Shown here piece after piece: positions 5,298 to 53,354 of a stretch of DNA of 64,000 nt. Position numbers and translations under genes: made by a program. The DNA is taken from the NCBI GenBank assembly GCA_949358305.1, contig OX442314.1:5146001-5210000 (forward strand). The letters are read 5' to 3'. The DNA comes from Strigamia acuminata. Taxonomy: Eukaryota. The notes below the pieces were generated by a model. The model saw only the letters and a list, made by a program, of their open reading frames with translations. It searched no databases and was not told where the DNA came from. Numbering within the stretch: position 1 is the first letter of the stretch; each line of letters opens with the position of its first letter.

Positions 5298-5414
5298 GCT
5301 TTACACGCTACCGGTATATGATTTAGCGCTGTTTGTGTCATTAATTCAAAATTTAACCTTTTTGCACCTTGCGTTGATACTTGCCTGATATTGGCTTAAA
5401 AAGTTCAGGCTAGA

Positions 5415-5677: not shown

Positions 5678-5685
5678 AAAGTGGT

Positions 5686-6114: not shown

Positions 6115-6311
6115 ACTTTTTGGCCAAGTAACAGTAACTAGTTACCAAATTCCAGCAACGCATGCAACCCTGGTTGCCGGTTGTCGAAGGGTGCCATGCG
6201 CCGGGAGATCACCAGAGACTCACATAGGGGCAACGGGCATCTTAAATATGTCAGGAGGGCCGTGGGTTCTGTTAGAACTTGACTTGCCAGGTGGAACCAA
6301 TCACCTTTACT

Positions 6312-31063: not shown

Positions 31064-32651
31064 TATTTTATTTTTGCTCTTTTCTAAATTCACTATTTTT
31101 ATTTTTTCAATTAAATTTGATCAAAATTTCATATTTTTATCCACATATTGAATTTTTCTTCGTACTTTTCTTCATACCGAATGAACTGCGTGGAAGAATT
31201 TTTTAAATGTCAGTTAGGATAGCTCATGGGCTCATTAGATGACTGTTGAATATGATTAAAAGAGGTAAATGATGGCACACAACATTACCATGAATCATTA
31301 TCAAAAAAAAATATTAAAATTTTTTTTTTTTAAATTATTTTTATATATGAATATACACAAACATATCATATATACAAAAATAAAAAGCAATTTGTTTTCT
31401 ATTCTAAGTAATTGAGCCGTAAACATCAATTTTTATTGCCTTTTCAAACCTATTTGTTTTGATGAAAAAAGAAACTCAGCCGTACAAATAAAATAAAATT
31501 TAAAATGGCCATCCTCATCCCATCTATTAATTAATTTATTTCCACAATAATTGCAATGACAAGCACCATGAAAAATTGTTTGTGGAAAGCAAATTGATTG
31601 GCATGGAATTAAACAGAAGAGATTCAATGGCTCGGTTTGACTTTTAAATTAGGCTTAGTGAGGATGCATCGAACCGAGTTTCGGTTTCCATTTGAACCGC
31701 ACGCATGCGTCATTCGCTCCTCATGTTTATTGTATGAGAAGCAAAAGTTACCGCAGCGATTTCGCTTGCAAACCGCAGAAGGATGGTTCTCGGACTAGCG
31801 GCCATGATGGATTATAACCACAACACGCTTAGCAGCCATTTTGGATCGCGCAATCAAACCTCATTTAAAATACAGGAAATGCTATTATTTAAAAAAAAAT
31901 CCTAATTCTAATTCACCATTGTTGAAGGTAATACATCACCACCATTAAATGTAACAATTTGTTCAACGGCGTTTTGAGTTTCAGTTTTCATTGTTTCTAT
32001 TACACAATGCAAATGGCCTAACAGAGAGAGTGATTAGATCTGTTGTTTGTTAACAATTTTAAGCCTCTTCGTTGCAATCTTTGTTCATTTTGAATTTGCT
32101 TTGATGATACTCGATAGAAGTGGTTGAGAACACACGTTGAAATATTCACCAGCGCACCCCGACAAGCACGAACAAGACATGAATAATGGCCGACCAAGCG
32201 ACACCTAACGACCGAATAAAAAATGAAGGAGGGGAGGGGGCAAAAAAGAAAGGAATATGTAACAAAATGGCCGTCCTTTTTTATTTCCTTCAAGAGGATG
32301 TCATCAAGCATTCATATGGGACTAAGCAGAGCAGATGCATTTCTTGAGATAGCTATCTCGCTTAAGCGAAAGTGAATCAATAGGTGCATTTAATGCTGTA
32401 GGTTTAAAAAAGCTTCAAAAGTTTTCTATTTCATTCCCACAACGGCAGCAGGGACAAAATGTCTCACAACTAGTGTAGGTCTTAGCACTGCTGACAGTAG
32501 GCCGGTAAGACCTTGTTTAATTAGTCGTTAGCTACGGAAGATAGGATGTCTGTGACTTGTAATTAGTGTTGGCTGCAGAAGTTAGAATGTTCCAATTAGT
32601 GTTAGTGTTAGCGCTAGGGGCAGCATTTAGGGTATTCCCTACGTACTTACA

Positions 32652-33032
32652 AGGAGACCGCAGGAGTTTGTAATCCACAATTGTTAAATTTTTTTTAAAA
32701 ATTAAAGTCTTCGCAGGATCTAAACAATGTTTTTTTTTTATATTTGATGCACCTTTCTTTCACATTGTTTCAAACAGTTACAACAGACAGATTTCTTTAC
32801 TGTGTGCTGTAACACTACTTTTTTATCTTTTGAGTAAAAAGGCCGATTTTATCATTTCACTTGGTGAATAGGCTGCTGGACATGTGACACGTGACATCAT
32901 GAATAATGAATTATGAATTATAAGTTGTTGTGATGTCACATTTGACACGAAAAAAATATTGTGTAGGTCATGTGAATACTTTAGTTTAAAAAAATTTTAA
33001 CAATTGTGGATTACACACTCCTGCGGTTTCCT
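32652..33032. mobile_element. MITE with ~45-bp TIRs
   Basis: AGGAGACCGCAGGAGTTTGTAATCCACAATTGTTAAATTTTTTTT is mirrored by AAAAAAATTTTAACAATTGTGGATTACACACTCCTGCGGTTTCCT. Confidence 0.8.
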
Positions 33033-33276
33033 AGTTAGCCGATGGTCATATCTGGTGGATTTGGATCCTGAGCCAGTCTTAATGGAGTGTGAGTGGTGCA
33101 ATTGCACCAGGAGGTTTTAATTTCTGACAGTGAGGCAATGGCTTATCTAGGATTTGTGGAACCCTTTTGGAGGTCCTACTTGCAATTTTTGAGGGATTTA
33201 GGGGCTACCATCACACATGGGGCCCTTTTTATACAAGAAGTGTGAGAACCAAACCATTGTGCAAGACCTAAGGATT

Positions 33277-34652: not shown

Positions 34653-35429
34653 GGTGGAAACACGCGGGAGCGGGTAAAATTCCAAAGAGGGAGTCATTTA
34701 CAAGCTCACTTGACCCGCTTTTGGCTTACCAGCTTAACTGGAAAACTCAAGCTATACTCTGGCTCACTGTTAGTAGGTACCCAGTTGGTATTGGCCGAGC
34801 CTGTTTATTCCCAACTGTTGCCTGTATACCACCACCAGGAAATGTAGTTTAGTTGTGTTTTTAATTTGTGTGATTATTGTAATGGTTTAAATGATGTTAA
34901 TTAGCTTTTATTTAATAATAAAATGTTTTAAAAAACCATACAGCAATGTTTGATGCTGTTATTTTTTCTAAATACCTGTTTGTTCAGTTCGTTCAGTTTA
35001 TTGGTTGCTTTGTCAAGCTGTTTTTGTATTTTATGATTGATTGTTTTGTCTGGACACAAAATGGCTTCCCATAACTCGAGCGTTTGTATTTTGGCCTACT
35101 TTTATGTAGCCCTACACCAGTGAATAGGCTCGGCCAATACGAACTGGGTACCTTCTAACGGTGAGCCTGAGTATAGCTAGGTAGCTAGCCAGAAATTCCC
35201 GCTAAAATCTCCTCCAAGAATATCCTCACGATTCTGATTGGCTGTCAAAGTCACATGACCAAAACACCAGCAAACTTGAAGCTGGTAAATCAAACTCAGT
35301 TTGATCGGAGCGAGTGAGTACAAGCTCACTTCGAAACAAATCTTTGAATAAAAACGCAAGCTTGTGTTTGCTCAAGCGGGCGAGTTTTTAGTCGCTTTTA
35401 AATTTTACCTGCTTCTTTGTGTTTCCACC
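34653..35429. mobile_element. TTAA-flanked non-autonomous DNA transposon (Kolobok-like GG...CC ends) containing a nested MITE at ~34751-35177
   Basis: TTAA|GGTGGAAACACGCGGGAGCGGGTAAAATT ... AATTTTACCTGCTTCTTTGTGTTTCCACC|TTAA. The inner TIR GCTATACTCTGGCTCACTGTTAGTAGGTACCCAGTTGGTATTGGCCGAGCCT is mirrored at 35126-35177. Another copy of the outer right end lies at ~25855-25926. Confidence 0.75.
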
Positions 35430-38400
35430 TTAACTTCAATTTTGAACAAGCTTTTTGAATGCAGCAACTGAATTCCACTTGTTGTGTAATAATTAGTGTC
35501 AGTGCAGACAGAGATGTGTCAGTTTGATTTTGGCATCAAGATACCGGAAGAGCAAACGTATTAAATGCTGTAATGTCCCATTGCCGCTTACCTTCTGTGG
35601 TTGGTATAGGGTGTTACAGACCTTTAAGGGCACTTTCAGTACCAGCTTTAGGTAATTTTGTATTATGGAGGAGGAAAAAAATACTGTCCTCAGTAATTGT
35701 TTGCTTGTGAACTGGAGCGTGAAACTCCGTGCTGAGGGTATGAAATCACCTAAGCCAAATCACAATAAGAAAATTGTTGCAATATAAAATATGAAAGTCT
35801 TTGTTGCATATAAGTGTTTACAGATGATGAAATAAACATTGTTGTTTGATTTAAGCCGATCGACAAAAAATGATGCTTTAGGCGGCCGTCTTTTTGACTG
35901 TCCGACGGAGCTACCGTAATAGTATTTTGGTAAATCAATTGCAGATAAGCCTTCAGAGAACTTAATTCTCTCTTGAAAAGGAAATAAAATGGAGGCCCAT
36001 ATGATACATATCATGATTTCTTGGCCAATTGCAAGCTGATGATATTGTGGATAACCCCGAGGAGTTCGGCTTTTTATCTGAAAGTACTTTCCCTTTAATA
36101 AAGACATTATCACAACAAACAGCTAGTCTTGCGAAAATGCTTTATTCAATTTAACAGTTGATTGAGTTTGCTTGTAGCAAAATAAACAATCAAAATTCAT
36201 AAGATGTGTGATTGTGTAAAGGTGAGTTCACACAACAATACACACTAGGCTTAAGGTCTAAAACCGGTGAAGAAGAAAATGATGTCCGGAGTCCAAGAAG
36301 GTTTTCTGAGATTGGTCCACTTGGCTCGCGGGTGATATAATTACAATGGGAGCCCGGATGGGTCCCCGGACAAGAAAAAAAGTAAATTAAGAAAAATTTA
36401 GCAAGGGAAACAGGTGAATGACTCTCATAATGGTCAGGTGTTATTTTGTTGACGGTTCGGCGTAAACGCGACAACGAGGCCCACAGGATTTGTCGCGTCT
36501 CACCTGGACTCGGTTTCACGTGGCACTAATTAAAAATAAAGAACGAGGCTTAACTGTTAAATCCGAGGATTTTTATACATCACCAGGTGGCGTTTCTTAA
36601 TTGAAAACCCCATTGGCCCATCTCTGAGGGACCACTAAAACTAAAACTGGCTTTTTCGCTCAGGTTGATGGTCTTTGTTTTGTGTCCTAATTTCTTGGAC
36701 ATGAGAATGTGAACAATGTTATCACACATTTTAGTCTTTGTCCATCAAAGTAATGGAAACATCAGCAAGCGAAAGAAAAAGAAGAAAATAAAGCAACGCA
36801 GTGGCCATCCCGGCCCTTGTGGATTGCAAATGATATAACAATGTAATAAGAAATGCATCTTAATAATAATTGAAAAACTATTCGCATTTAGACATTATAA
36901 AAATAAGAAAAAAAAGTTTTTGAGGAATAAAAGTTTACTTCTTTAATTATTTTTCAGGAAAAAAAGAGTTAGTTATTTTTCCACTTCTGTAATTTTTTTG
37001 ACCCACCATGGCTATGGGAAGGTTAAATATGCTATTGTTGTTTGGTAAATTTTAAGTTGCCCCATAGATGCCGGCTTGCACGGCCTGAATCCCCAGACCA
37101 GCACTATACTTATGGGGCCATGACTTAAGGTCAGTTCACACATCAATCCATGCTAGACTTAACTTTGACTTAAGGTCGAAAAGCGTTGGATTGCGCGATT
37201 GAATTAACCTATAATCCCTTAATTCAACCTCAAGTTGAATTATGACTTTGACTTAACATAGTTACAAGCGGCTGGCCAATCACAGGTCACTGCAGTCTTG
37301 CAGTGATGTGCGAGATAATGCGTGAGTTTGCAAATCGAAGACCCCAAGAAGCAAACATTTCCAGGAAATGACGTTTCACTGGTGTTGTGATCCGAAAATA
37401 TAGACCCAAACACCAGAAATGTATTACAATGTGCTGTCCAGACAAAGCAAGCAATAAAATAAAAATAAATTCGTTTTAATTAAAAACAAAATAAAACTTT
37501 ATTTTAAGTTAGATAACATATTTTATTACATAATAACATTAAATGTACATCATTTCAATGATAATTATTCTGGAATAGACTAAAAATCATAAGGAACTAC
37601 TTTTCCCCGTAGCAGTAGTTCAACTGCAGTTCTGAGTAATTAGACTAGGCCAATGGGAGCCAAGCTTCCAGGGCTCCTTTTGAATGTGGAAAGAGTATAG
37701 TTCTGTTTATTTTCGATGAATTTTAGTGTAAAAAGAAGGATAGATTTTATTTAATTTGCAATAAAATATTTATTTTATTTGCTTAAATAAGCTTTTTTCT
37801 CTTTTAATCAATCAAACAATGGAAGCATAGTTTGTTGGTTTCTTTTGGCAGGTAAACAACGGTTTGGGTTTTTATTGGTTGTTTTGCCTAGTTAGATAAC
37901 AATTCTTGTGTTACGGTCTACTTTTTTGTGCCACTACACCAGTGATACGGCTTGAATTAGGACAACGTTGTATCGAGACAAAGTATACATATTTTGTCAA
38001 TGATATGTATGACTAGGGGCATGGGACATCATACTTTTTTCCTGGATGCTTTAATGTATCAGGAGGGCCCTCTGTCTATACAAAGTGACTTTTCTTTTCC
38101 ATTTTGAATGCAAATACTGTTATCCGGCACGGCAGTAAACTAAAGCTCCGCAACTTGAAAGCGGCAACACATCTGTCGCTATATCATAGTTTGCGATGTT
38201 TCAATATTTGAACAATGCCATTAAAAAAGTAAACCCGAGTTAGATGAGTTGCTTCCGGAGAGAAATATGTGCCATTTCCATCGAAGCGCAACAATCCTCG
38301 GTCCCCTTCGGGAGGGGTTTTGTGTAGTGGCAACACGCCTCATTGGGTTTCTCGTGGAGCGGAGTAAGGACCCGGCACAAGCTTCCGAGCCGAAGAGCAG

Positions 38401-39681: not shown

Positions 39682-40354
39682 TGTCACGATTAATTCTGTT
39701 GGTATAATTAATTCTAAACAATATCGCGCAAAAACTAATTCGCGCAATAGTAATGGGCAAAGTTCGTAGATTTCCCTAAACGTTGTTTCCTTCAAATGTG
39801 GACATCCAGAAACTCAGGAAACCTAATACTCGCGTTTGACTAACATAATTTATATTGGACAGTTCCTTGCTTACGACGGGTGTTTGTAGGCATAAAAGAA
39901 TGGAAGCACGATGATATAAACCTAAAGTGGGAAGGGGATATCATCGGGCAGTGATAATATAAAAGATGTCGGCTTGGAAAATAGCGCAATAGGGTTAGAT
40001 GTAGGAGCGCTTATTGAAGGCGCAAATAATAGAGGACTAAATCTAAATGTTACTAAAGGAGAATGGTGTTATCCAGTAGAGAGCATAAGAAGAAGTGATT
40101 AAACTTAGGATGATTGGAAAGAAGAAGACTCAGTCATGTGACTGGTCAGATCAATTAGAGAAGGGGGTGGAAAGGTGAAAATAAGAGTTCAATTGTAGAA
40201 ATAATGATATGCGCATCATCCAGATTGCGCATTCATTAACTGAAGATGAGTAAGCGAGATGAATCATCACGAGTGAGAGAAACAAGAAAATATTATAAGA
40301 AATAAGATTGGGTTATTCTAAAATAAAAATAGGCGGGTAGACGTGCCCGTGACA
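39682..40354 (-). repeat. 3' LTR (673 bp)
   Basis: No difference from 53355-54027 seen by eye; 7-bp terminal inverted repeat. Confidence 0.98.
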
Positions 40355-40367
40355 TCCCCCTCCCCTT
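40355..40367 (-). promoter_or_regulatory. Polypurine tract (AAGGGGAGGGGGA)
   Basis: Purine run immediately upstream of the 3' LTR on the element's sense strand. Confidence 0.95.
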
Positions 40368-41710
40368 AAACCTTTATTATAGTTGTTGAAATAAAGGCAA
40401 AGAGAGAGAGACTCACTCAAAACAATACAACAATAAATACAATCTTGGTTAAATATGTGAAACAAATGTCTAGACTAACATACTCTTGATTAAATAAGAT
40501 CTTGACTAAATATGATGATTATGAGAATTTAGGGGTCGTCACCAGATAATAATAATAACAAAAATTAACTCATCAGGAAGCTTGAGAATAAATCTACCGA
40601 CCGACTTGTAAATGAAAATTATAAATCAAAAAATAAACAAACTTTTTAAATAAATCGTATAAAACTCATCGAATAAAGATTAAACAATTTTGAAGGACGA
40701 AGACAAGACTAACTAAACACGCGACACTCACGGGAGGACATGGACTAAATTTTTTAGGATAGGACGGACTTGAGGCTATACACTTTCAATTTAAGTCATC
40801 ACAATAAAAATATTTTACCCATTTGCTTTGTAAAACGAAGCAATAAATTTCTACGCGGATAAATTTTAAACACGAAAAATAATACAAATAAAGAATGTCA
40901 CAAGAGAGTTTATCTTACGAACAGGGGGTTTTATTCGGATTGGATACCTTTTTTTTAGGAAAATGGCGCAAATGAATGCGCAAAACAAAACAAGGTAAGG
41001 GATACCATACATGTATGTAGACTTAACATCAGGTAGGTATATAAGGAATGATAGGAGAAATAAACATAAAATATGAAAATTTGCGCAATGTTGGCGCGAT
41101 AAACAAAAAATATAACTATGACACTATTTGGAATCATTAAAGGGAAATAATAAAAATGGGGATGAAGGTATCCTCATGCACAACCGGACCGGTTGCCACG
41201 GGAAAATTATCACAGTTAGAAATATTAGGTATTATGAGAATTGAATAAATACTAATTTTGAAAAAATCACACTAATATATCACCATTAAGAGTATCACAA
41301 ATAATTATCATTATCATGACCTATTCCAGTAATTCAAATAATACAAACTAAAATTAAACTTAATCATCTCAATTTTGAGGAATTCTAAAAATCAGAATAA
41401 TTTCTGGAATAAGTCAGGATTTAAATTCAAAAATATCACAATATAATTAAATTATAATAATGGAAACAATAATAATGGAGAAAACACTATAGCAAATAAA
41501 AGTCTCGTAATTGTTCGGCTAACTGTTCATGCTAAAGTATTTAAAAATAAACATAATAAAATTAACACTTCACTTTTGGAGCACTTATCCAGCGGTGATG
41601 AAGATCAGATAAATTTGCGCAATAAATGTTTCCAGCAGTCCGTGGAATACTACACTTGTTGAAAAACACTTAACACAAAATGATGATGATGAGAAACACA
41701 AATACAACGG

Positions 41711-42032
41711 CTAGAACACAAAATCAGTTCCTCAACTCCGTAGAGAAATTTTAGGAGGGCGCTATAAGAAATTGATGCTCTAGGACGTGTAAGATGAATT
41801 TTTATGATGAAATATTTCACTCGCATCCATCATGGTGGCGAGAAACAAAACCAGTTCCGCAACTCCGTAGAGAAATTTTAGGCGGGCGCTATAAGGAGTT
41901 GTTCTCGGGGCACTTGAACGAATAGCTGAGATGAAATACTTTTAATTTCCGGCTCATATGTGAGGATGAGAATAAGACCAGTTCCGTAACTCAGATGAGA
42001 AATTTTACACGGGCGCTGTAAGGAAATATTCC
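41711..42032 (-). ncRNA. Three tandem copies (127-nt period) of a conserved cis-acting structured RNA motif in the retrotransposon 3' UTR
   Basis: Cores begin (+ strand CAGTTCC) at 41725, 41852 and 41979, with compensatory base changes between copies (see findings). Confidence 0.7.
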
Positions 42033-42193
42033 TACCGTCTGATGAGCAGAAATGATGAAAGACACTGTTGGTGGTGATTTGTTGGTTTAATTGCGCAAAG
42101 AGAATGGTGGCGCAAAATAGGTGGTCCTACGGTTTTCCGAGTGATGTTGTTATCACCGTAGAATATCTAATTTGAAGAAATTGTTATTGTTTA

Positions 42194-44977
42194 TTAAGGA
42201 TTACCTGACAAGGTTCTACACGGGGCCGGCATCCGAAATGATTTGATCATGTTGAGAGCCACGTTAACCACAACTCTCATTGCGTCCCGGTAGTTTGTGG
42301 CACCTTGCCTGTTAATTTCATTTTTGCAGTGATCTAAAAAGAGTTCCCCGTATCGGAGATACAGGGAATGGAGGAGGGGTTTGGCCTCTTCTGGTCGCAT
42401 ACGGAGGTCGGCTGACGCAAGGGATTGAAAAAGTTGGCGGACCGATGCAGCAGACATCCCAAACTGGAGACATGGTCCATTGGCATTTGCGAAATTACAC
42501 TCGACCGCAGCTGGTGGCAACAAACTGGGGAGCAGTTCCAAGGTGATGCGAGGAGGCGTGTCATCCCAAATTTGTGATCCTTGGGCCGGTGGGATAGATG
42601 GTGCGGTCATCGGGTAAAATCCTGAATCTGTCATCAGATTGCGCAATTCTTGAAGGCGCAATTCATCCGACCGTCTCTTTTCTTCCTCTTTTTCTGCTTG
42701 CTCACGAGCTTCGCGTTCGGCTGCTTTGCGGTGAGCTTCTGCAACTCGGGTTTTTTCCAATTCGAATTCCGCGTCTCGTTCTTGGCGTCTCTTCTCCTCC
42801 ATCATGTTGTGGTAGTCCCTGGTGTCCTGGACTTTGTAGAGATGGACGGAGATCTCACGATGCAAAATCCACACGAGCATCTCGATTGCTGTCTCGGAAT
42901 CGTACGTGCCACATTCGGACATTCGTTTTGCAACTTGGCGCGCGATGTGGGGCCGCCTGTCCATCATCTCTTTCTGGGTTATGCGGAAGTCTCCCTGGTA
43001 AATACTGAAATCCTCCACCATCATGAAGGTGATAAGCGCATTCCAGGCCTTCCATGGAATTTGGAAACGAGTTTGAGACACTCCGGGTCCCTCAATGGAG
43101 ATCTGAACCTCGTATTTTCGTAGAAATTCTTCAATGACTTCGAATGAGTTGGCGGGTTTTTGGGTTACTCCATACTTATCGAAAGCCAAATCGCAACGAG
43201 AAGCGACTTTTTTAAACGAGAGTCCAGTTCCGATGTTTGGAATTGCGCAATCGAGTCGGGACCGGTAAGATGATGTGCTCGAAACGCTAGTCGAGGTTAC
43301 GGGAATCTTGGCGGTGGCAGCCGTGGTGGTTGACATGTTAAAGTTGGCGCTGGACGTCGTTGTCGTAGTTACATTGCGCCCTGGAAATTGCGCATAAGTA
43401 ATCGGCGTCACTGGCAAAGTTGGAACTTTTGAAGGTTTCGCCTGCTGACACGCTGGAACTTCGGTTGCTGGTGCAATTGGCGAGATCGTGTACGTTTGTG
43501 AAAATACATCGGCCGAAGCAGCAGAGACGGTCGAAGCTGGAAAAAGATCGGCAGATAAATTAATATTTAAGTTGTCAATATCAGGGTTAATTTGTAAACT
43601 CGGCGTCGACGCTGATGACGGCGCGTTTACGGCTGGTGTCAGTCTAGCACTCAATGGCGGTCCGCGTGGCCGAGAAAAGTTAGTTTTGGCAGACGGAATG
43701 TCGATGTCGCGAATGTCAATCATCTTTCGTTCCAGTCTGCGCACATCACTTATTTTAGCGGTGGGAACACTACCGCGAATTTCGTTGGTGATGTCCAGAA
43801 TCGACGGGGTCACGCTCATGGTGGATTGCACGTCAAATTCTGTAGGTCTAGCGGCTGAGATAGATTGTTGAGAATCGTCCATGTTCTCTTTGCGCAATGT
43901 TTCTTGCGCAGAATCGTCCGCTAACACTGGTGATTCAGGGATGAATTGCAGTTGTGGCACTGGTCGTAGCGCCATTTCTGTTGGTGGAGTGGAGAATTCA
44001 ACGTTAGACACAGTGGAATTTGAGTACAAACTTTCGGTGTCCTCCTTGGTGGTAATGGTGAGCGTCGCCATCTTTTCGGCTGCTTTGGCAACCGTCTCGG
44101 CCGAAGGTCTGGGCACGAATTGTTCCGCCTCCGTGTCGCGAGTTGGGTCGTGCGGGAGCGCCGATGACGAGGTTGCCAAAGTGTTGCGCACCTTGATGGC
44201 TAATTGTTGCTCTCGATTTGGATTTCGATTTATCGAGCATGGTGGCCTGCGTTGGTAAAAATATGGCAGCGCGGTATCAGAGTTGTCGTCGATAGTGGCA
44301 AGGTCTCCCAGCGATTCCAATGCAATGCTGATTTGCTCTTGAAGACTCGCATCGGTCCCAGGAAAGCTGTGGAAGAATTGGGGCAACGTCGGTTGCGCTT
44401 CGTCCACTTCCCGCTGCTCCTGGTCCATCGGGTCCAAACCGGCGATTTCGTCGGCGAGCAAATTTGGCACTTGCGCAAACGTAACGCGCATTAACTCGGC
44501 TGTCGGGTAAATCCAACTCCTAGGCACGATTCTCGCCTGCCTTGCCTCTCGCTGGAGTCGATGCCAATATTTAAAATGACCGGCGCGGAATCTTTGCACC
44601 ATGGCTGGTGTACCGTTTGGTGGCCGAAATTGTGGAAACTCCACCCCGATTAGGTAAACTTTGTCCTGCACACGACGAAACAGGCACCAGCCATAAATCT
44701 GGCGCATCCACACACGATGAAATCCGCGTCGAAGATCACCCCGCCCGTCACACGCTCGGCAAGTTTTATCCACGCCTGAAACAACCAGTTCGTACCCGTA
44801 TCCGGAACAAACCGGGCATATCTCGAAGTTAGGATAGCTGTGTTCACGGGGGTCATTTGGATGCCAGCATGGAAATTTGGGCGGCCCGACTGCGTGGAGC
44901 GGCGGTTCGGCAAAGTTCTTCGGGTAGGGTTCGCCCGGAAAATCCTCCTTGCAACGACACACATGTTTGTCGGCCAT
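42194..44977 (-). CDS. Retrotransposon ORF3, 927 aa, function unknown; N-terminal CxxCxGxG zinc-finger pair, Ser/Thr/Pro-rich linker, charged coiled coil
   Basis: Uninterrupted 2.78-kb ORF inside the element in sense orientation, with ATG in good context (ACAACATGG). Motifs CPVCSGYG (aa54-61) and CRACDGRG (aa73-80); EEKRRQERDAEFELEK...ELRLQELRNL helix. No signal peptide or TM segment seen. Confidence 0.9.
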   Translation of the reverse strand: MADKHVCRCKEDFPGEPYPKNFAEPPLHAVGPPKFPCWHPNDPREHSYPNFEICPVCSGYGYELVVSGVDKTCRACDGRGDLRRGFHRVWMRQIYGWCLFRRVQDKVYLIGVEFPQFRPPNGTPAMVQRFRAGHFKYWHRLQREARQARIVPRSWIYPTAELMRVTFAQVPNLLADEIAGLDPMDQEQREVDEAQPTLPQFFHSFPGTDASLQEQISIALESLGDLATIDDNSDTALPYFYQRRPPCSINRNPNREQQLAIKVRNTLATSSSALPHDPTRDTEAEQFVPRPSAETVAKAAEKMATLTITTKEDTESLYSNSTVSNVEFSTPPTEMALRPVPQLQFIPESPVLADDSAQETLRKENMDDSQQSISAARPTEFDVQSTMSVTPSILDITNEIRGSVPTAKISDVRRLERKMIDIRDIDIPSAKTNFSRPRGPPLSARLTPAVNAPSSASTPSLQINPDIDNLNINLSADLFPASTVSAASADVFSQTYTISPIAPATEVPACQQAKPSKVPTLPVTPITYAQFPGRNVTTTTTSSANFNMSTTTAATAKIPVTSTSVSSTSSYRSRLDCAIPNIGTGLSFKKVASRCDLAFDKYGVTQKPANSFEVIEEFLRKYEVQISIEGPGVSQTRFQIPWKAWNALITFMMVEDFSIYQGDFRITQKEMMDRRPHIARQVAKRMSECGTYDSETAIEMLVWILHREISVHLYKVQDTRDYHNMMEEKRRQERDAEFELEKTRVAEAHRKAAEREAREQAEKEEEKRRSDELRLQELRNLMTDSGFYPMTAPSIPPAQGSQIWDDTPPRITLELLPSLLPPAAVECNFANANGPCLQFGMSAASVRQLFQSLASADLRMRPEEAKPLLHSLYLRYGELFLDHCKNEINRQGATNYRDAMRVVVNVALNMIKSFRMPAPCRTLSGNP

Positions 44978-45026
44978 GTTGTCTCAACTAGATGTAATTG
45001 TGCCTAATTGATTTCAATCATTGGGG

Positions 45027-45033
45027 TTATATA
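45027..45033 (-). promoter_or_regulatory. Candidate TATA box (TATATAA) of an internal ORF3 promoter
   Basis: Lies ~50 nt upstream of the ORF3 ATG, with a TTGCGCAA palindrome ~50 nt further upstream (45082-45089). Confidence 0.35.
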
Positions 45034-45698
45034 CACAAATTGAAACAATGAACATATCACAAACGTTACTTACAATTAGAATTGCGCAAATTATGAACGC
45101 GCACACAACACAACACACGAAAATCAACACATGAAGTTAATCCATAGGAGAAGAATGCACAAGTGTCAAACGCTTCGAGAACTTTCTCACACAGGTGTCA
45201 TATGAGCATATGGGTATAAGGTGTGGGTGTTAGAGACTATAGTCGTAACTGTTTTAATAGAACGACGTACTCTAGTGTGAAGAATTGGAAGTTAACGAAA
45301 GATTGTAAATGAATGTTCTAGAAGGAATAGTCAATTTTAACATTGATCTTCAATGAGAAAGTTTAGCATATGCAAATCTAGACACACATAGGTACATATA
45401 ACTAAATAGAAATAATAAATTGGGAAAATAAATAATCTAAACACGTGGTGTTTTGAAAATGCAGTTAAAAGTGTCACACTCTAGTGGGCAATTTTGTCCT
45501 CACTGGAAATGGACTTAGTCAATTTTGAAATGAACAAATAAGAAACGTAAAACGAATAACATAAAACATAAAATATTTAAAAATAAAGAAACATAAAAAC
45601 ATAAATGGAATTTTCCTTTAAAGTAACGATGGAATTACACCGGATTACTTTGGTTTTTTTTTTTTTTTTTTTTTTTTTGTGAAAAATAAATAGAAAAA

Positions 45699-48600
45699 TT
45701 ATTTGAAAGAAAGAAAATAAGCAGTGAAAATATCTAGTGTGTTAGCAGTATAATTTTCGACATGCTTGTCGATGATTTCGACATCTTTCAGAGTTAGGAA
45801 ATTAGCTTGCGCAAAATGCCAATGGCGGAGTTCAACAACGTTGTATGGTTGTGTTTTTCTGCCATTTTGGTCCATTAAGATAACAGTGTTGGGGCCCACC
45901 AATTTATGAATGATGTAGACTCCTTCAGTTCGCTGGCGTAAGCCTGCTGCAAACTGTCTGTCGGCGGAAGAGGGTTGTCGATTGCGCAACGTCACCCAAT
46001 CGCCAGGGCGAAAGTCATGAGCGCGACGTTTTAAATCGAACCATTTTTTGTGGCGAATCTGGGATTCGCGCAAATTGTTCATCGCCCTTTCTCGCATGGT
46101 GCGCATTTGCTCATGGAGGTTTTCAGCCTCAGATGGTGGTAAAGGTTCCCCGTCATCTGTGTCACTATCAATATCACCAGGGAATCTGGCTTCTTGGCCT
46201 GTAACTAACTTAAATGGAGAATACTTTAATGAAATTTGGTACGCCGAATTGATTGCCAAAACAAAATAGCCGATATTTACATCCCATCGATCGTGGTCGT
46301 CTATGTAAGCTAAAATGCAGTTTTTTAAGGATTGATTCAGGCGTTCGGCAATATTGCCTTGGGGGTGGTACGCTGCAGTGTAGCGGTTTACTGCACCTAA
46401 TTGCTGGATTTGGCTGCGAAACTCAGGTGACCTGAATGCGGGGGCATTGTCGCTGATAATGACGTTGGGGAAACCCCAGCGTTTCGTAAATTTTTGAATT
46501 TGCGCAACTGAAGTTGCGATAGTCGAATCTTCTGTTAGTCTTACGTCTAACCAACGACTTGCTGAGTCGACCATTACAAAGGCGTAGCAATGGCCGCCCA
46601 CTGAACGTGGTTTCTTGCCGTAGTAATCAATGTATATTGCAGAGAACAAGTGGCGCGCTCTCGACATTATCATTTTGCCATAAGGCAAGCGATTTAATGG
46701 TTTCGCGCGTTGACAAGCCTCGCAAACCTGAATCCAAGTTTGAACATCTTTTCTCATTTTGGGCCAATATACACGCGTCTTTAAACGATGGAGTGTTTTT
46801 TCTCTTCCCATGTGTCCCACTACTGGAGGGTAATGCATTGCGCGGAAATATCGTTCGCGCAATTCCAAGGGGAGATAAATTTGACGCCTCTTGCGTATTT
46901 CATTAATATGAACTGGTGGAAAACGACACAACATATCTTTATGCATACCAAAATTTTGCGCGCCTTTTTGAATTTGCGCAGCTTCGACTGGATCGACCGG
47001 CAGCATTTGAGCAGTTAAGTAGTATATCAACTCACGCGACCACGGATCTTGTCTCTGTGCGGCTATTATTTCAGCGGCGTCTGGAAGCATTTCAAATGGT
47101 GGATGTTCAATAGGTGGATCGTGTTCCAATTCAGCCTGTTGCTCCGCTTCAGTGAGCCTTCTGTCTGATTCTGTAAATGTTCGTTCAGATCTCGGGCGCA
47201 GTCTTGTCGGAGTTCGAGGCATTCCACCTCTTGGCACTGGATACTCTACCGGCGAAGGAAAATCCCGAATCGGACTAAAACTGTCTGTGTCGGATGACGA
47301 CGTGTCGGAGTCCGGCTCGGAAGGGTACCCATCGGGGAGTTGGTGTCCAGAAGGCCCTGGTCCGGGGTCAAACACTGGTGGCACAGTCGGTGCTGTATCA
47401 GTTGTCGTTGACGGCGAAGACGCAGGAGAGGTTGGAGGAATAGGAGATTGTGATATTGGGATGGTTTGTGTGGGAGAAGGTGTTGGAAAATTTGGAATTT
47501 GGATAGGAGTTGATTTTGGTGTAGGTTTTGGTTTTGGTGGCAAAATATGAGAGGGAATTCCAGCTGACTTTCGGGGTCGTCCTTTAGGTCTAGGAATTGG
47601 TGGAGTTGGTATTTTGGAAACCGGAGTTGGTGTGGAAATAATTTTTTTACGAGGAGGCAAAATATGAGAGGGAATCCCAGATGACTTTTTGGGTATTCCT
47701 TTTGGTTTTGAAGTGAGGGGAGTTGGTGCTGAAGGAATGGAAACTTCTGATTTGCTTGGAGAACTGGGTTGGTTAGGAGGTGTTGGAGCAGGAATCGGAA
47801 CAGGAATAGGACTAGGAAGGGCTGTGGGAATAGGTGAAATCACTGAACGAGGTGCTTTCGGCGTCCTTTTGCCTTTTCCGATTCTCTGTGCTTTCAGCAG
47901 CTTAGGAAATGTCCATTTCTTTATATTAGCTCCATATCTTGGTAATTTCGGAGATATTTTCGGAACTAAAGTGGGGTCCCTTAATCGAGCACGAGTTCTT
48001 GTCGCAATAGCACGTTTGGCGCGAGGGGAGAGCACTGGAATTATCATAATTTTACGTGGTCGTCCTCTTTTCTTCGTCAATATTGGAATCAACGAATGTT
48101 GTCTGCGCGCACGAAGTGGCACTGAAACACGAACCGATGGAGAATTAGGTGAAATTACTGGTAATGTAACTGGAGTTGTTTGTTGAGTTGGTTGCGCAAC
48201 TGGAGTTGACGCAGCTGTTGAAGTGGGTTGCGCAATTTGAGTTGGCGCATTGGATGGTGTAGTGGTCGTTGTAATTCGACGAGGAATGAGGGATTTCCTT
48301 TTTCCTTTCTTTTGTTTAGTTGGTGAAATGGCTGAAATTAAAGTTGATTTAACGAATTTATCTTTGAACATTTTCTTAAATTGTCTATTAATGTCTTTTG
48401 GCAACTCAGTAATTATGGACAATACTGGCCACTGATTACAGTCATCAAAGTATGCTGTATAGCAGGCTTCATCGACGAGTGGGCTGTCATCTTCCTCGTC
48501 GTGTTCGGGTGGATCGACTGGTGCTCTGCTTAGTGCGTCGGCCACTCGATTTTTGCATCCTGAGCAGTGCAGGAAAGTGAATTTGTATTCGCTTAGTGAG

Positions 48601-51413
48601 AGTACCCAACGAGCAAGTCGGCCAGTTGGTTCTCTTTGTTGAAATAACCACTTCAAAGAACGATGATCACTCTCTAAATAAAATGGCATCATTTCTAAAT
48701 AAGCGCGGAAACGTTTCACCGCCCACACGGCTGCTAGGCACTCAATTTCAGTCACATTATAGTTTTTTTCAGCACTGTTAAGTGCACGAGAAGCAAAAGC
48801 TATCGGTATCCTTTCTCCTGCGTCATTTAATTGCATTAAAGCCGACCCCAAACCGGAGTAGCTTGCATCTGTTTGAAGGATGAATGGCTTTTTCCAGCTG
48901 GGAAAACGTCTTTTTAGCGTTGGAGTCGCTATTTGATCTTTAAGATAATCAAAAGCTTCCTGTTGCGCTTCGTTCCAATGCCAAACAGCATCTTTTTTGA
49001 GTAGTGGTCGGAATACCTCACTTGTCTTGGAAAAGTTCGCAATAAAAGATTGATAATAACCCACCATACCTTTGAAACGTTGTAACTCGCGCAAATTTGT
49101 TGGCGCAGGATAGTTTTGGATAGCTGACACTTTTTTCGGATTTGGAGAAATCTGACCAGATTCCACGATGTGGCCCAAAACTTCGAGGCGCTGTTGACAG
49201 AGCTCGGTCTTGTTGGCGTTCATGGTGAAACCGGCATTAAATAATTCCTCCAAAACGAGGCGCAAATGTTGAACATGCTCCTCAAATGTTTTGCTAAAAA
49301 TAATAACATCATCAATGTATACAAATACGAATTTATATAAATATTTGGCCAAAGTCTTATTCATCGCTCTTTGGAGTGTTGCAGGACCGTTGATGGGGCC
49401 AAAGGGCATACGAACGTATTCGAACAGTCCTCGGTGTGTTATGAAGGCCAAGAATCGCTCATCTCCCTTGCGCACTCCAATTTGGTGAAAGGCCTCGCGC
49501 CCGTCGATTATCGAGAACCAATGTGCACCACCTAAATACGCAAATATATTGTCTATGTCCGGAAGTGGATACACATCCGGAATTGTTTGCGCATTAATGG
49601 GTCTGAAGTCCATTGCTGTCCTCCATTCCCCGGTCTTTTTGGGTACGACCACTGGGGCGACGGCGCAATCACTTTGTGAACGGCGAATTATGCCTTGTTG
49701 AAGTTTCTTGTCAATGTACTTGTCAATAATTGCCTTTTTCGCAGGGTTTACGGGGCGTACTGGAACATGGATCGGACGAAAATCTGGTTTCAGATTAGCT
49801 TCATATTCCGTATTATTACATAAACCGATTTCCTCACGGAAAATCTGTGAAATTGGCTGCAAAGTTTCAATTAGTAGTTTGATTTGCGTAACAGTCAGAT
49901 GGTTCCATAACTGGTGATAAATCCAATCGAGATCGGTCGGATTCTCACTAGGTTGGTACTGCAAAAAGTTGATGTTGTAAACATTTGAATTTGAGTCGTT
50001 CTCACCATTAGTAGGTTGCGCAGTTGTTCTGGAGTCGTTGATTAACTTCTTTTTGTCGTTAATGTCTTTGGCTCGTTGCGCAATCAATTGTTTGGCGATG
50101 GGACGAATAACATTCAATTTATGACGAAGGCGACGCAATCGACGAAATTGGCTTAAAGTCAACTTACGAGAGATTGTCTTTTTCACTTTACTCGAAGTTC
50201 TCGAAGTTTCCTTTCGTTTCGGTGACCAAACATTCGACCACGTGGTTCGACTGCGATGCCTAATTGTCTTTACTTGTCTTTGTGAGTCGTCGTTTGGATA
50301 CTCAAAAACCTCATTTTTCAATGGTTGGTGTAACAGCAGCACACAGTTAATGTCACTGGGTGGCGCAGGCTTCTTGAGTATTTTATTTGGAACAATCTCA
50401 CTTATTTTAACTGGCGGAGTTGCTGATTTATCCAGTTCCTCCGGTGCCATTGGAAATACGAGGATGGACTCGGATTTTTTGGCGTCTTCATAGGTCACGA
50501 ATTTACGAATTTCGTCTGAGCCAGCCAAGCTCCACTGGCTCCTTCCATGATCGATGGTGGCTCCGACTGCTTGGTTAAAGTCTCGTCCGAGGATCAAGTC
50601 ATTTTTGGCATCAGGCAACACTAAACACACGAATTTCACCACTCCTAACGGCGCTCGCAACGCAAGCGTCACTGATTTTGAAGCAGTAACCACGTGTCCG
50701 GATGCGACCTGTACTTTTTCATGTAAATTAATAAATTCGAGTCCCATTTTTTCGTGAAGTTGTTGAAATAATTCCTCGCTCATGATGCAAGTTTGGGCAC
50801 CTGAATCTAAAAGCGCGGTAAATGACACATTTGCCCAAGATATTTTTACGCATGGAGCTTCTCTGCGCAATCTATCGGCGCGTGTTATCTCAATAATTGG
50901 CTCTTGAGATTCTTTAAGCTCCTCCGAGGTCAACATGACAAAAGATACCTTCATTGGAGCGATCACTTCCTTGGGTGCTTCCGCTGAATTGACACTGGAA
51001 GTAGGCTTAATAAGGGGTATTTTAAAGTTTTTACTCACATTCTTGGTGATTTGTTTCTGTGCAGTCGCAGCTTGCAAGGCTGTCGACTTTGAAACAGGTC
51101 CAGATGCTAGTTGGAAAGCCACAGGTTGCAAAACTGAAGTTTTCCGTTGATTCGTCACTATCGGTGATGAAGATGGAGGTGTGGACGATACAACACTAAT
51201 TCCTGGTTTAGACTCACTAGGAGTGGTAGAAGAAGTAGTTGTTGTTGGAATTATCCTATCGGAAATGTTCTCGTCAAGGATTATGTCGGGTGAAGCACGT
51301 CTTGTTGATTCCACACGTTTTACGCTTGTGGAGACCGGTTGATTTACTTGCGGCCTGGCTCCGCCGGTCGTGGGAACTTCAGGCCGTCGGAGTTTTCCTG
51401 CCTCTCGAAAACT
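45699..51413 (-). CDS. pol: Pol polyprotein (aspartic protease, reverse transcriptase, RNase H, integrase), expressed by -1 frameshift from gag
   Basis: Protease LLDSGA. RT MDFRPIN, YPLP, RMPFG, YIDD. RNase H TDAS, EIECLA, SDH, ADALSR. Integrase HHCC (MHYPPVVGH...CEAC), DDE (YID, SDNA, AERLN) and GPY/F-like EGVY. The frame is open from 51413 (after a TAA at 51414-51416); the ORF track starts it at a GTG at 51314. Confidence 0.97.
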   Translation of the reverse strand, partial: SFREAGKLRRPEVPTTGGARPQVNQPVSTSVKRVESTRRASPDIILDENISDRIIPTTTTSSTTPSESKPGISVVSSTPPSSSPIVTNQRKTSVLQPVAFQLASGPVSKSTALQAATAQKQITKNVSKNFKIPLIKPTSSVNSAEAPKEVIAPMKVSFVMLTSEELKESQEPIIEITRADRLRREAPCVKISWANVSFTALLDSGAQTCIMSEELFQQLHEKMGLEFINLHEKVQVASGHVVTASKSVTLALRAPLGVVKFVCLVLPDAKNDLILGRDFNQAVGATIDHGRSQWSLAGSDEIRKFVTYEDAKKSESILVFPMAPEELDKSATPPVKISEIVPNKILKKPAPPSDINCVLLLHQPLKNEVFEYPNDDSQRQVKTIRHRSRTTWSNVWSPKRKETSRTSSKVKKTISRKLTLSQFRRLRRLRHKLNVIRPIAKQLIAQRAKDINDKKKLINDSRTTAQPTNGENDSNSNVYNINFLQYQPSENPTDLDWIYHQLWNHLTVTQIKLLIETLQPISQIFREEIGLCNNTEYEANLKPDFRPIHVPVRPVNPAKKAIIDKYIDKKLQQGIIRRSQSDCAVAPVVVPKKTGEWRTAMDFRPINAQTIPDVYPLPDIDNIFAYLGGAHWFSIIDGREAFHQIGVRKGDERFLAFITHRGLFEYVRMPFGPINGPATLQRAMNKTLAKYLYKFVFVYIDDVIIFSKTFEEHVQHLRLVLEELFNAGFTMNANKTELCQQRLEVLGHIVESGQISPNPKKVSAIQNYPAPTNLRELQRFKGMVGYYQSFIANFSKTSEVFRPLLKKDAVWHWNEAQQEAFDYLKDQIATPTLKRRFPSWKKPFILQTDASYSGLGSALMQLNDAGERIPIAFASRALNSAEKNYNVTEIECLAAVWAVKRFRAYLEMMPFYLESDHRSLKWLFQQREPTGRLARWVLSLSEYKFTFLHCSGCKNRVADALSRAPVDPPEHDEEDDSPLVDEACYTAYFDDCNQWPVLSIITELPKDINRQFKKMFKDKFVKSTLISAISPTKQKKGKRKSLIPRRITTTTTPSNAPTQIAQPTSTAASTPVAQPTQQTTPVTLPVISPNSPSVRVSVPLRARRQHSLIPILTKKRGRPRKIMIIPVLSPRAKRAIATRTRARLRDPTLVPKISPKLPRYGANIKKWTFPKLLKAQRIGKGKRTPKAPRSVISPIPTALPSPIPVPIPAPTPPNQPSSPSKSEVSIPSAPTPLTSKPKGIPKKSSGIPSHILPPRKKIISTPTPVSKIPTPPIPRPKGRPRKSAGIPSHILPPKPKPTPKSTPIQIPNFPTPSPTQTIPISQSPIPPTSPASSPSTTTDTAPTVPPVFDPGPGPSGHQLPDGYPSEPDSDTSSSDTDSFSPIRDFPSPVEYPVPRGGMPRTPTRLRPRSERTFTESDRRLTEAEQQAELEHDPPIEHPPFEMLPDAAEIIAAQRQDPWSRELIYYLTAQMLPVDPVEAAQIQKGAQNFGMHKDMLCRFPPVHINEIRKRRQIYLPLELRERYFRAMHYPPVVGHMGREKTLHRLKTRVYWPKMRKDVQTWIQVCEACQRAKPLNRLPYGKMIMSRARHLFSAIYIDYYGKKPRSVGGHCYAFVMVDSASRWLDVRLTEDSTIATSVAQIQKFTKRWGFPNVIISDNAPAFRSPEFRSQIQQLGAVNRYTAAYHPQGNIAERLNQSLKNCILAYIDDHDRWDVNIGYFVLAINSAYQISLKYSPFKLVTGQEARFPGDIDSDTDDGEPLPPSEAENLHEQMRTMRERAMNNLRESQIRHKKWFDLKRRAHDFRPGDWVTLRNRQPSSADRQFAAGLRQRTEGVYIIHKLVGPNTVILMDQNGRKTQPYNVVELRHWHFAQANFLTLKDVEIIDKHVENYTANTLDIFTAYFLSFK
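51333..51398 (-). promoter_or_regulatory. -1 ribosomal frameshift signal: slippery G GAA AAC plus H-type pseudoknot
   Basis: GGAAAAC at 51392-51398 in the gag CAG GAA AAC codons, a 5-nt spacer, stem 1 CGGCCUG/CAGGCCG and stem 2 GACCGG/CCGGUC. Pol is in the -1 frame, and the gag-pol overlap is limited to 51344-51413. Confidence 0.85.
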
Positions 51414-53251
51414 TTATAGCACACAGGACAAATGGGACGCCAAGTAGTGTTATCAATCATGTACCACCAATCCTTTCTCGTTTTGCGCCAAGCCGCACCT
51501 TTTTCGGGAAACTTGACGCTTGTTGGAGGTTTTGGTGATGGCGCAAATGTAACAACAGAGGTAGAACAGACATGGTCCTTTGGGAGATCTGCAGGGGGCG
51601 CGATTGTGGTTGAATTTACTGAAATGTTCACCTTTTGCGCGGCTCCGGCGACAGAACTCTTTTTGGTTTCCACTTCCGATTCCGACTCACTGCTGCTACT
51701 TGAACTTGGCTCCTGTGGCGGCGAAGGTTGCTCGGGTCGGGCTTCCAACGCAGCTAGTTCTAACATAAGCTGTTGTTTACGATAGCGCGTAAAACGTTTG
51801 GCGTCGTGGGACGTGGAGGTTTTAGATTCGGCTTCACCTCTGGACTTATCCACGGATTTCAACACGGTGGGGGATGAGGGGTTTACTTCTGAAAGAGGTG
51901 CAAACTGATCAACGAGACCCAAATGTTTATACTCAGTTTTGCGATGAGAGTCGAGTAGTAATCGATTGTCTACGTCGTTTCCTATTTGAATGGCTTCGTC
52001 GATAGTTTTGACGTGCATTGTTCTCAAAAGTTGGACGACGTCAGACAGCAGCATGTTCTGTGCCTTCTCCCATTGTAATCCAGGGTCTGTGTAGCCTGCA
52101 ATTTCTAAATAATAAATTATTTCGCTGAGAAAAGTCATGGTGGACTCTCCACTGCGTTGCTTTCGATTTGCAATTTTCACATTAGCTGCCGCTGAATTCA
52201 TGGAGAATGCCTTACGAAACAATATCTCGAACTCAATCCAAGTTTTGGGTTTTGGTTTTAATGCGAGCCACCAACGTTGCGCCTTGTTGCGGGTTGCTTG
52301 AATTATATTCACTTTTAAATACTCTTCCTCGGGCATGCGGGTGGAATACATATGCGCAAATAATTGCGCAAGAAACAAATTAACAGAGTCAAGTGTGGCC
52401 TTCTCAGGGTCGAAACGTGGGAGTTTTTCCTTATTATTGTTATATCCTCGGGAAGAGTCTTCTCGTCTCACTCGTATTGATGGTAGAGACAATTGGGCCC
52501 TTACTCCGGATGGGTGCCCTGGGTTGTTAATTTTGGCACATAATAAAGAATTCATCACCTGCTGATTGGCTTTTGTTGAATCCATAATTTGTGATGCCAC
52601 GGACGGACATTGAGTAAAAGTAGTGGCCTGCGTCATTACCGGTGGCGTTGTAGTTGTAAACGTCGGTTGCGCAGTGATGGTGGTGGGCGCAAACTGTTGT
52701 TGGTGGCTTGCTCCTCCACAATGAGGAACTTCCGTGGAAAGTTCATTTCCTAATGGTGCCGAATTGCCTTTTACCCTTATGGATCCATGAGAGGACCCAC
52801 CATCCTCTGACGGGGGTGTCGTTGGATGTGGAGGGCTGGTGCCTTGTTGGTAAATGCTTCGCATTTCTTTGAGTAATCCCTGTGCCTGAACGAAAAACTG
52901 ATTACGAATATCACACATCAATAAAGCTTCGGAATGTAAAATCGTCGGATTCATTGATATTCCTGACGTGCCAGGAGTGAAGAAGGCTGGAGGCACGAGC
53001 TGATATGCTGGTGTTGACGTGGCAACTGTCGTTGGCGCAGAAATGTTCACGCCAGGTATTTGAGCCGACATGTTGTCACGGAATGTTGACGGCATTGAAT
53101 TTGCAATGGTTATCAATAACTCACTTTGCTCCGCTCGTGTTCGCCTTAAACGCTCATAACGCTGCCAGTCGAGAGACGAAGCCAGCTCGTCCAAATCAAA
53201 GGGGTCTCGTACGGCGGGGTTTTCCTCACCGTTTCCCAACTCATTCGACAT
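51344..53251 (-). CDS. gag: Gag (635 aa) with retrotransposon capsid-like domain
   Basis: First ORF after the PBS. Capsid-like pattern KLPRFD...FL...AQRWW...TW.EFE..F...RKQRSGES...F. No canonical CCHC knuckle; only a CPVC near the C-terminus. Confidence 0.92.
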   Translation of the reverse strand: MSNELGNGEENPAVRDPFDLDELASSLDWQRYERLRRTRAEQSELLITIANSMPSTFRDNMSAQIPGVNISAPTTVATSTPAYQLVPPAFFTPGTSGISMNPTILHSEALLMCDIRNQFFVQAQGLLKEMRSIYQQGTSPPHPTTPPSEDGGSSHGSIRVKGNSAPLGNELSTEVPHCGGASHQQQFAPTTITAQPTFTTTTPPVMTQATTFTQCPSVASQIMDSTKANQQVMNSLLCAKINNPGHPSGVRAQLSLPSIRVRREDSSRGYNNNKEKLPRFDPEKATLDSVNLFLAQLFAHMYSTRMPEEEYLKVNIIQATRNKAQRWWLALKPKPKTWIEFEILFRKAFSMNSAAANVKIANRKQRSGESTMTFLSEIIYYLEIAGYTDPGLQWEKAQNMLLSDVVQLLRTMHVKTIDEAIQIGNDVDNRLLLDSHRKTEYKHLGLVDQFAPLSEVNPSSPTVLKSVDKSRGEAESKTSTSHDAKRFTRYRKQQLMLELAALEARPEQPSPPQEPSSSSSSESESEVETKKSSVAGAAQKVNISVNSTTIAPPADLPKDHVCSTSVVTFAPSPKPPTSVKFPEKGAAWRKTRKDWWYMIDNTTWRPICPVCYKVFERQENSDGLKFPRPAEPGRK

Positions 53252-53334
53252 GATGAAAAAAAATAATGAGAATGATTAATAATTTAAACGAAAACTTAAC
53301 TTTCTTGCGCGTTTTCAGCCTAAATAAGCGAGGA

Positions 53335-53351
53335 TCCTGTCAGGCTCGCCA
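53335..53351 (-). promoter_or_regulatory. Primer-binding site complementary to the tRNA-Arg(ACG)-type 3' end
   Basis: TGGCGAGCCTGACAGGA begins 3 nt after the 5' LTR. Its complement TCCTGTCAGGCTCGCCA resembles metazoan tRNA-Arg(ACG) 3' ends (recalled TCCTGGC(T/A)GG(C/A)TCGCCA). Confidence 0.8.
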
Positions 53352-53354
53352 TGT

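Follow-up and report, generated by a model that had tools for sequence, protein, structure and literature searches.

A probable structured RNA array of three conserved hairpin heads in the 3′ UTR of a young Ty3/gypsy LTR retrotransposon

The window analysed here, a stretch of 64,000 nucleotides, carries on its minus strand an intact Ty3/gypsy LTR retrotransposon (39682-54027) that hosts an array of three related units, each with a conserved head. The element possesses the features by which Ty3/gypsy retrotransposons are recognised, namely two LTRs, a primer-binding site, a polypurine tract and the pol order protease-RT-RNase H-integrase. In the direction of its sense strand, its parts are the following:

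53355-54027, minus strand: 5′ LTR (TG...CA), 673 nt
53334-53351, minus strand: primer-binding site, 3 nt past the 5′ LTR
51344-53251, minus strand: ORF in the gag position, 635 amino acids, without a Pfam match and without a CCHC knuckle
45699-51413, minus strand: pol, with protease, RT, RNase H and integrase, and a Pro-rich linker with two GRP motifs
42194-44977, minus strand: ORF3, an orphan of 927 amino acids
40355-40367, minus strand: polypurine tract, preceding the 3′ LTR
39682-40354, minus strand: 3′ LTR, 673 nt, with a 4-bp target duplication (AATC)

The host element is a young, intact copy: its LTRs, each 673 nt long, differ at none of the 671 positions compared, and none of its three long ORFs is interrupted. 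The 5′ LTR and gag are separated by a leader of about 100 nt, and the array begins 170 nt beyond the ORF3 stop in a 3′ UTR of 1.8 kb. The primer-binding site may resemble tRNA-Arg. Several further traits of the element were recorded alongside. A genome-encoded run of 25 A on the sense strand (45654-45678) comes directly after the stop of pol, within the 720 nt that separate pol from ORF3, and the long Pro-rich linker that connects RNase H to integrase carries KRGRPRK/KGRPRK motifs near pol residues 1117 and 1278 that are presumably AT-hook-like. One AATAAA lies directly upstream of the polypurine tract (40373-40378) and a second overlaps the ORF3 stop (42190-42195), none being present within the LTR; a family variant at 42196 shifts this stop by one codon downstream. 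Other, non-repeated hairpins of the 3′ UTR are predicted to be locally stable (about 41300-41420, 41100-41220, 40940-41060 and 40300-40460; z about -4 against 25 mononucleotide shuffles).

An earlier reading of this DNA from its letters alone had reported three copies of a structured motif downstream of ORF3. All three are present on the minus strand, with start-to-start distances of 127 and 127 nt, and their apical tips are as described, with a UACG loop in two copies and AUCU in the third. Each copy consists of a conserved head and a stem, or rod, that is predicted to bear it:

41978-42023, minus strand: head 1, 46 nt, with an AUCU loop
41851-41896, minus strand: head 2, 46 nt, with the same predicted fold as head 1 and a UACG tetraloop
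41724-41769, minus strand: head 3, 46 nt, with the same predicted fold and a UACG tetraloop, differing from head 2 in only two compensatory pairs
41945-42053, minus strand: rod 1, a predicted long irregular stem of about 110 nt bearing head 1
41810-41941, minus strand: rod 2, a predicted long irregular stem of about 130 nt bearing head 2
41703-41791, minus strand: rod 3, a predicted stem of about 90 nt bearing head 3

The alignment of the copies is gap-free across 79 columns, and its conserved core is the 46-nt head (columns 18-63), where any two copies agree at 35 to 42 of the 46 positions (76-91%). A degenerate pattern of the head matches three times in the window against 0.00 expected. The covariance model that the sequence-only reading had proposed to build from the three copies finds those three only; a fourth copy is missing from the window, the next match reaching 14.6 bits versus 94-99 for the training copies. 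Outside the heads, the 55-nt upstream spacers are identical between copies at 12 to 23 of 55 positions. For spacers 1-2 and 1-3 the alignment is no better than that of shuffled sequences, spacers 2-3 retain a slight likeness (17 of 1000 shuffles), and Tandem Repeats Finder did not report the array. The exact 127-nt spacing on which the earlier reading had relied holds in the window and fails as a fixed property: family copies in all three runs that cover the region have lost one nucleotide at 41915, in the interval from unit 1 to unit 2, so that the spacing can also be 126. A UUUCAUC motif does precede every unit as had been noticed, but at a spacing of 124 and 124 nt, out of register with the heads.

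RNAalifold folds the aligned copies into a single unbranched hairpin of 18 pairs, 7 of which are changed on both sides. From the base upward, the predicted structure starts with a basal stem that varies, over which a pyrimidine loop (2x2) leads to 2 bp; next come a bulge of 4 nt, AG/CU and a CGC/AA internal loop, and above these follow the 4-bp helix P, a 9x2 A/U-rich internal loop, and a CUC/GAG hairpin closed by the tetraloop. Helix P, for which covariation had been claimed, pairs in all three copies and includes two double changes. The proposed pairing of (U/C)AG with CUG fared differently. In the consensus, columns 18-19 pair instead with columns 62-63 (C-G, C-G and U-A at 18/63), with the 4-nt bulge below AG/CU; yet, taken in isolation, the originally proposed register comes out lower in energy. 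For the G at column 62, the partner can be either the invariant C19 or the pyrimidine at column 23, and the position of the bulge may, in these models, slide between the two registers, both of which retain the compensated 18/63 pair. An alternative apical register of 5 bp (AAUUU/GAGUU) can form in all three copies and is in each about 1-2.4 kcal/mol less stable. The consensus fold has no three-way junction, and among the seven helices of at least 4 bp common to all copies none makes a compatible shared pseudoknot. That the basal stems differ in sequence and pair nevertheless was correctly seen; they continue into the long rods, whose arms have no sequence in common among the three and are still predicted to pair.

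The weight of the case lies with the pattern of change. Heads 2 and 3 differ at four positions, which amount to two compensatory pairs, an outcome with a simulated neutral chance of 6e-5 to 1.4e-4. Between heads 1 and 2 there are seven differences: two make up a single compensatory pair, three fall in the tetraloop and two affect unpaired letters (chance 0.01-0.02). Both simulation figures are somewhat generous, because the structure came from those same sequences. When the three heads are taken together, none of 11 pairs is broken and three are doubly changed, the remaining differences falling in the tetraloop and at two unpaired positions. Single units, by comparison with shuffles, do not fold better than expected (sense z +0.54, -0.71 and -1.23), and the case consequently depends on covariation rather than on stability. 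Among the rods, only rod 2 clearly beats its shuffles (sense z -3.3, against -1.3 for rod 1 and -2.0 for rod 3), and rod 1 scores better on the plus strand (z -2.4). A column-shuffle control for the 10-pair structure of the sequence-only reading was non-significant for these three sequences (49 of 500).

As to the strand, the consensus alignment folds significantly better than column-shuffled alignments in the sense orientation (14 and 24 of 1000 shuffles; z -2.3 to -2.7) but not in the antisense orientation (90 and 166 of 1000; z -0.9 to -1.4). A U-G wobble had earlier been cited as working on the sense strand only. As an argument for the strand this single wobble is weak and does not settle the matter, because the plus strand folds too, and its consensus is similar and includes two G-U pairs that are conserved. 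The sense strand is favoured, short of proof, as the folded one.

Natural variation among other copies of the family bears on the same point. Three of six listed public runs contain the stretch, and these carry one species label and come from two studies; of the four runs that we examined, three covered it, and the fourth, X6, yielded no contig there, which does not prove absence. Since alleles and element copies are inseparable in run contigs, the variants are to be read at the level of the family, and all counts refer to the 40 of 94 variant places contained in a filtered list. Twelve of these fall on predicted stem positions, where they hit 10 pairs, and on the sense strand eight of the 10 remain paired: two by double changes, four by passing from Watson-Crick to G-U and two by passing from G-U to Watson-Crick. 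The two double changes are compensatory U-A to C-G replacements in rod 3 (41703/41791 and 41712/41782), with all four substitutions on one contig of run X3. In run X2, 41712 is changed and 41782 is not, which leaves a U-G intermediate on the sense strand. The rod 1 variants at 41947, 41950 and 41952 also preserve sense pairing. Both broken pairs belong to rod 2, one at 41820, a variant that favours the plus strand, and the other at 41831, facing a deletion of 1 nt. On the antisense strand, five of the 10 pairs remain, and five of six strand-discriminating events, the X2 intermediate included, speak for the sense strand (p=0.11). All 26 listed UTR variants lie outside the heads, for which the probability would be 6e-4 if variants were spread uniformly, with the proviso that some head-overlapping contigs carry unlisted differences; on a single long contig, at most one of 15 variants falls in a head, a non-significant depletion (p=0.17). 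Collectively, the compensation between heads 2 and 3, the failure of spacers 1-2 and 1-3 to align and the two double changes in the family support the earlier proposal of selection on RNA structure over simple tandem duplication, and the array is real and, as an RNA structure, probably under selection.

Searches for relatives returned nothing akin to it. The motif was found to have no counterpart in Rfam: in Rfam 15, at E values up to 10, five matches were obtained on 6501 bases and six on 371 bases, all far below their gathering scores. Nor is there any sequence likeness to export elements of the CTE, DR or MTE kind, a statement that covers the elements contained in Rfam. The hammerhead, HDV-like, twister and pistol cores that the sequence-only reading had failed to recognise are indeed not to be found, as no Rfam ribozyme appears on the 371 bases at E up to 10; its failure to see a flaviviral xrRNA was equally sound, the required junction and conserved pseudoknot being missing among the shared helices of at least 4 bp that were screened. 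The strict head pattern has no match in viral contigs and none in metagenome contigs, and no relatives outside the species were found in either. A loose pattern gave three loci in viral contigs and 108 in metagenome contigs. We do not regard these as relatives: the covariance model, run on 100 of the 111 loci, scored at best 16.2 bits (E 0.56), and across all 111, helix P was paired in 13 of 113 matches and the rest of the head in none, which we read as chance. With the RT as query in viral contigs, 17 pattern matches came up, of which none was confirmed; the closest RT relatives share no more than 45% identity in the 120 listed of 281. A possible likeness of copy 1 to helix III/loop C of 5S rRNA gained no support, RF00001 being absent from the Rfam matches obtained at E values up to 10 and the copy-1 pattern (A/U insert optional) occurring in 0 viral contigs. 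Loose SECIS and IRE patterns match outside the heads or out of register with them. A literature search, conducted mainly among papers free of subscription, retrieved no described element of this kind at the thresholds applied. The fold is absent from Rfam; as a kind, control elements with a structured RNA in the 3′ UTRs of retroelements are already known.

ORF3, whose gene immediately precedes the array, deserves attention as a candidate ligand. It contains four cysteines in two CxxC motifs (residues 54 and 73), a basic block with a net charge of +8 (residues 101-150) and a long predicted helix near its C-terminus. In our searches it showed no detectable likeness to known proteins; a weak resemblance to the DnaJ zinc finger (E 0.05 in Pfam, E 0.93 in the PDB) and an Atlas match of 0.75 are leads at most. 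Two single-sequence structure models were of low confidence (pLDDT 35 and 51), and the sole match to a simple export-signal pattern is in a stretch of low complexity. Judged by its sequence, ORF3 is not recognisable as an envelope protein. Among the 13 listed variants of its last codons, eight leave the amino acid unchanged, which suggests a protein under selection.

The element is also marked by a palindrome, TTGCGCAA, which corresponds to the canonical C/EBP motif (PMC4333159). It occurs at 15 sites in the window against a shuffle mean of 1.9, with none of 100 shuffles reaching 15, and all 15 sites lie within the element (41081-52371) and none in the 49.6 kb of flanking DNA. Eleven are located in ORFs, in all three frames, where synonymous shuffles lead one to expect 0.96 and reach at most 5 in 1000 trials. 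Between 45089 and 41088, the sites follow each other at intervals of 476-647 nt. Two of them bracket the array:

42091-42098, no strand assigned: TTGCGCAA upstream of the array, predicted partner 41615-41622
41615-41622, no strand assigned: TTGCGCAA downstream of the array, predicted partner 42091-42098

When 41605-42110 is folded by itself, these two sites pair with a probability exceeding 0.8. The closing helix is nevertheless uncertain, because in a wider fold (41600-42200) the upstream copy pairs locally instead. The palindrome may act as DNA, as the target of a host factor or of an anti-silencing system, for which the plant VANC proteins set a precedent (PMC5735166), or as RNA. The DNA around the element holds features of its own: an Erg28-family host gene on the plus strand with two exons (4766-4870 and about 8152-8271), Erg28 being the Pfam match in the one of 139 scanned flanking frames that gave any, and the Atlas clusters nearest to its one database relative being for the most part chordate, so that the host is probably an animal, and presumably an invertebrate; short MITE-like elements with terminal inverted repeats (5684-6116, 37478-37702, 34750-35178, 32646-33038 and 5179-5306), two related copies of which lie at about 5.7 kb and 37.5 kb; and numerous minisatellites with periods of 11-61 nt (e.g., 21529-22237, 24745-25629, 54736-55517 and 61614-62500).

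What might three such heads be for? We tentatively favour, at somewhat less than even chance, a multivalent protein docking array through which unspliced RNA would be exported from the nucleus and put to use in the cytoplasm. We are led to this reading because the position and the repeat design of the array resemble those of retroviral export elements. The array is situated between the last ORF and the 3′ LTR, where most export elements of retroviruses and retroelements are found (PMC4588558; PMC11379458). The MPMV CTE, the RSV direct repeats, the MusD MTE and the SERV-K/MER11 CTE are all structured non-coding RNAs of this same region (PMC4588558; PMC3856414; PMC11379458), and the 115-nt direct repeats of RSV, which have export and other, pleiotropic effects, also consist of repeated units (PMC3856414). 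In contrast to our array, which belongs to an invertebrate-type Gypsy element, displays three separate predicted rods with one kind of head and has no Rfam match, these systems come from vertebrate retroviruses or their relatives, and their activity has been shown.

In a model of this kind, each rod would display the same conserved head. The rods, whose stems need only to pair, would be scaffolds; the invariant bulge and internal loops would form the recognised surface, and the three copies would confer avidity. If ORF3 is made from a spliced message, then the full-length RNA, which includes the region upstream of ORF3, would be intron-retaining. Within the export reading, ORF3 itself would be the ligand, in the manner of Rev or CERV, with a chance that we put a little below even; alternatively, a host export factor might be bound, as NXF1 is by the CTE. 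The precedent for an accessory protein in an invertebrate Gypsy-type element is CERV of Cer1, whose Cys-rich loop is needed for exporting genomic RNA (PMC10309623). Like CERV and the HIV Rev/RRE pair, the present system would combine an LTR element with an accessory protein that has a four-cysteine motif and helical, multimerising parts; unlike ORF3, which is a separate ORF after pol and is likened to it by features, CERV derives from spliced RNA and has a leucine zipper in common with Gag (PMC10309623). The accessible text of the Cer1 report names no RNA target for CERV, the terms 'stem-loop' and 'cis-acting' having 0 occurrences in it (PMC10309623). Evidence against the export reading comes from the pairs of rod 2 that are broken at 41820 and 41831, and from the single units, which are no stabler than their shuffles; the non-significant column shuffle of the 10-pair structure, the missing Rfam match and the orphan character of ORF3, with its one low-complexity export-signal match, also count against it. 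Position, moreover, suits a role in stability or packaging equally well (PMC12501189).

The heads could instead act in packaging or dimerisation, by binding Gag or ORF3, or by kissing between two genomes, and thereby select RNA into particles. We rate this as a less likely but serious competitor, to which the short leader and a Gag devoid of a CCHC knuckle lend some weight, as do the pleiotropic RSV repeats (PMC3856414). The head contains two short self-complementary words; of these, the GCGC word could form a 4-bp duplex of -7.1 kcal/mol, but the A/U palindrome is very weak (-0.2 kcal/mol), and the tetraloop, unlike a kissing loop, is unconserved. Furthermore, the array would also be part of any ORF3 subgenomic RNA and so could not alone select genomic RNA.

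More ambitious, and rather unlikely as a whole, is the idea of an independently arisen switch of the complex-retrovirus type. An orphan zinc-finger ORF3 would multimerise on three heads placed behind its own gene and so control genomic RNA export, in an element with 15 C/EBP-type palindromes, two of which would clamp the rods into one domain.

An RNA-stability element is unlikely, though the location of the array past the ORF3 stop in a long UTR would suit one. Such an element might bind the poly(A) tail in the manner of an ENE, block a nuclease as xrRNAs do, or protect from nonsense-mediated decay. The Evade retrotransposon has an ENE at the same position (PMC12501189), and ENEs are recognised by an internal loop that is U-rich on both strands and flanked by G-C pairs. 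In the heads, UUU faces UU next to a C-G pair in the upper internal loop; however, this loop is 9x2 and A-rich on its long side, leaving room for at most two or three triples, whereas the poly(A)-binding Evade ENE brings four U-rich tracts together in one fold-back (PMC12501189). With regard to nuclease blockade, a pseudoknot is essential to flavivirus xrRNAs and to most of those from plant viruses (PMC8374639), and the heads have neither a conserved pseudoknot helix of at least 4 bp nor a three-way junction; benyvirus xrRNAs make do without either (PMC8374639).

Recruitment of a motor adaptor of the Egl-BicD type, by which the RNA would be localised into the germ line, strikes us as improbable. 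Irregular, bulged hairpins of comparable length with bulges on the 3′ strand serve the I-factor, a retroelement whose ILS is one such signal, and other RNAs (PMC13186709), and the head does have a 3′-strand AA within an internal loop. In Egl signals, however, neither the upper nor the lower helix is shorter than 6 bp, and these signals share little common sequence and tolerate varied sequence (PMC13186709), whereas the predicted upper helices are here 4 and 3 bp long and the loop letters are invariant. The host, besides, may not be an insect. Just as improbable is an action through DNA or antisense RNA, with the head as a composite factor-binding site or with the plus strand as the one that folds. 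The similar plus-strand consensus with its conserved G-U pairs, the variant at 41820 and the wealth of the element in a DNA-type palindrome are in line with it. A linear DNA site, on the other hand, leaves the compensatory changes unexplained, the alignment fold is significant for the sense strand only, and most of the strand-discriminating variants likewise side with the sense RNA.

An undescribed self-cleaving ribozyme, or a precursor of small RNAs, is highly improbable. Catalytic RNAs typically carry invariant unpaired letters on variable stems, and so do the heads, but no Rfam ribozyme family was met among the matches described above, core patterns of twister, pistol and hairpin ribozymes were unmatched, and the sole hammerhead-like word pair (plus strand, near 42039) is single-copy, lies outside the heads and lacks a stem II. 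Cleavage at the array would sever the genome from its 3′ LTR, and conserved tips on variable arms are the reverse of microRNA precursors. Equally hard to maintain is a neutral relic of an old tandem triplication, or of local homogenisation of the heads, devoid of any selected function: Gypsy elements commonly house, in the region from pol to the 3′ LTR, tandem arrays whose function is unknown (PMC11963269), spacers 2-3 retain some likeness and no relative was found outside the species, but the neutral simulations for both pairs of heads, the pairing of unrelated rod arms and the compensating family variants of rod 3 speak against it. The plant Retand/Tat arrays, which resemble our element in that the long region from pol to the LTR holds repeats as well as extra ORFs, are head-to-tail and are found by Tandem Repeats Finder (PMC11963269), whereas the array described here goes undetected by that program, is conserved in its heads only and covaries.

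For the biology of LTR retrotransposons outside vertebrates and yeast, in which little is known about how unspliced RNA is exported or packaged, the array offers a tractable object. A compact head of 46 nt, natural compensatory variants, an intact young element and a candidate ligand encoded next door lay it open to direct probing, structure solution and assay. If the array proves to be an export or packaging site, a new RNA fold would join that class.
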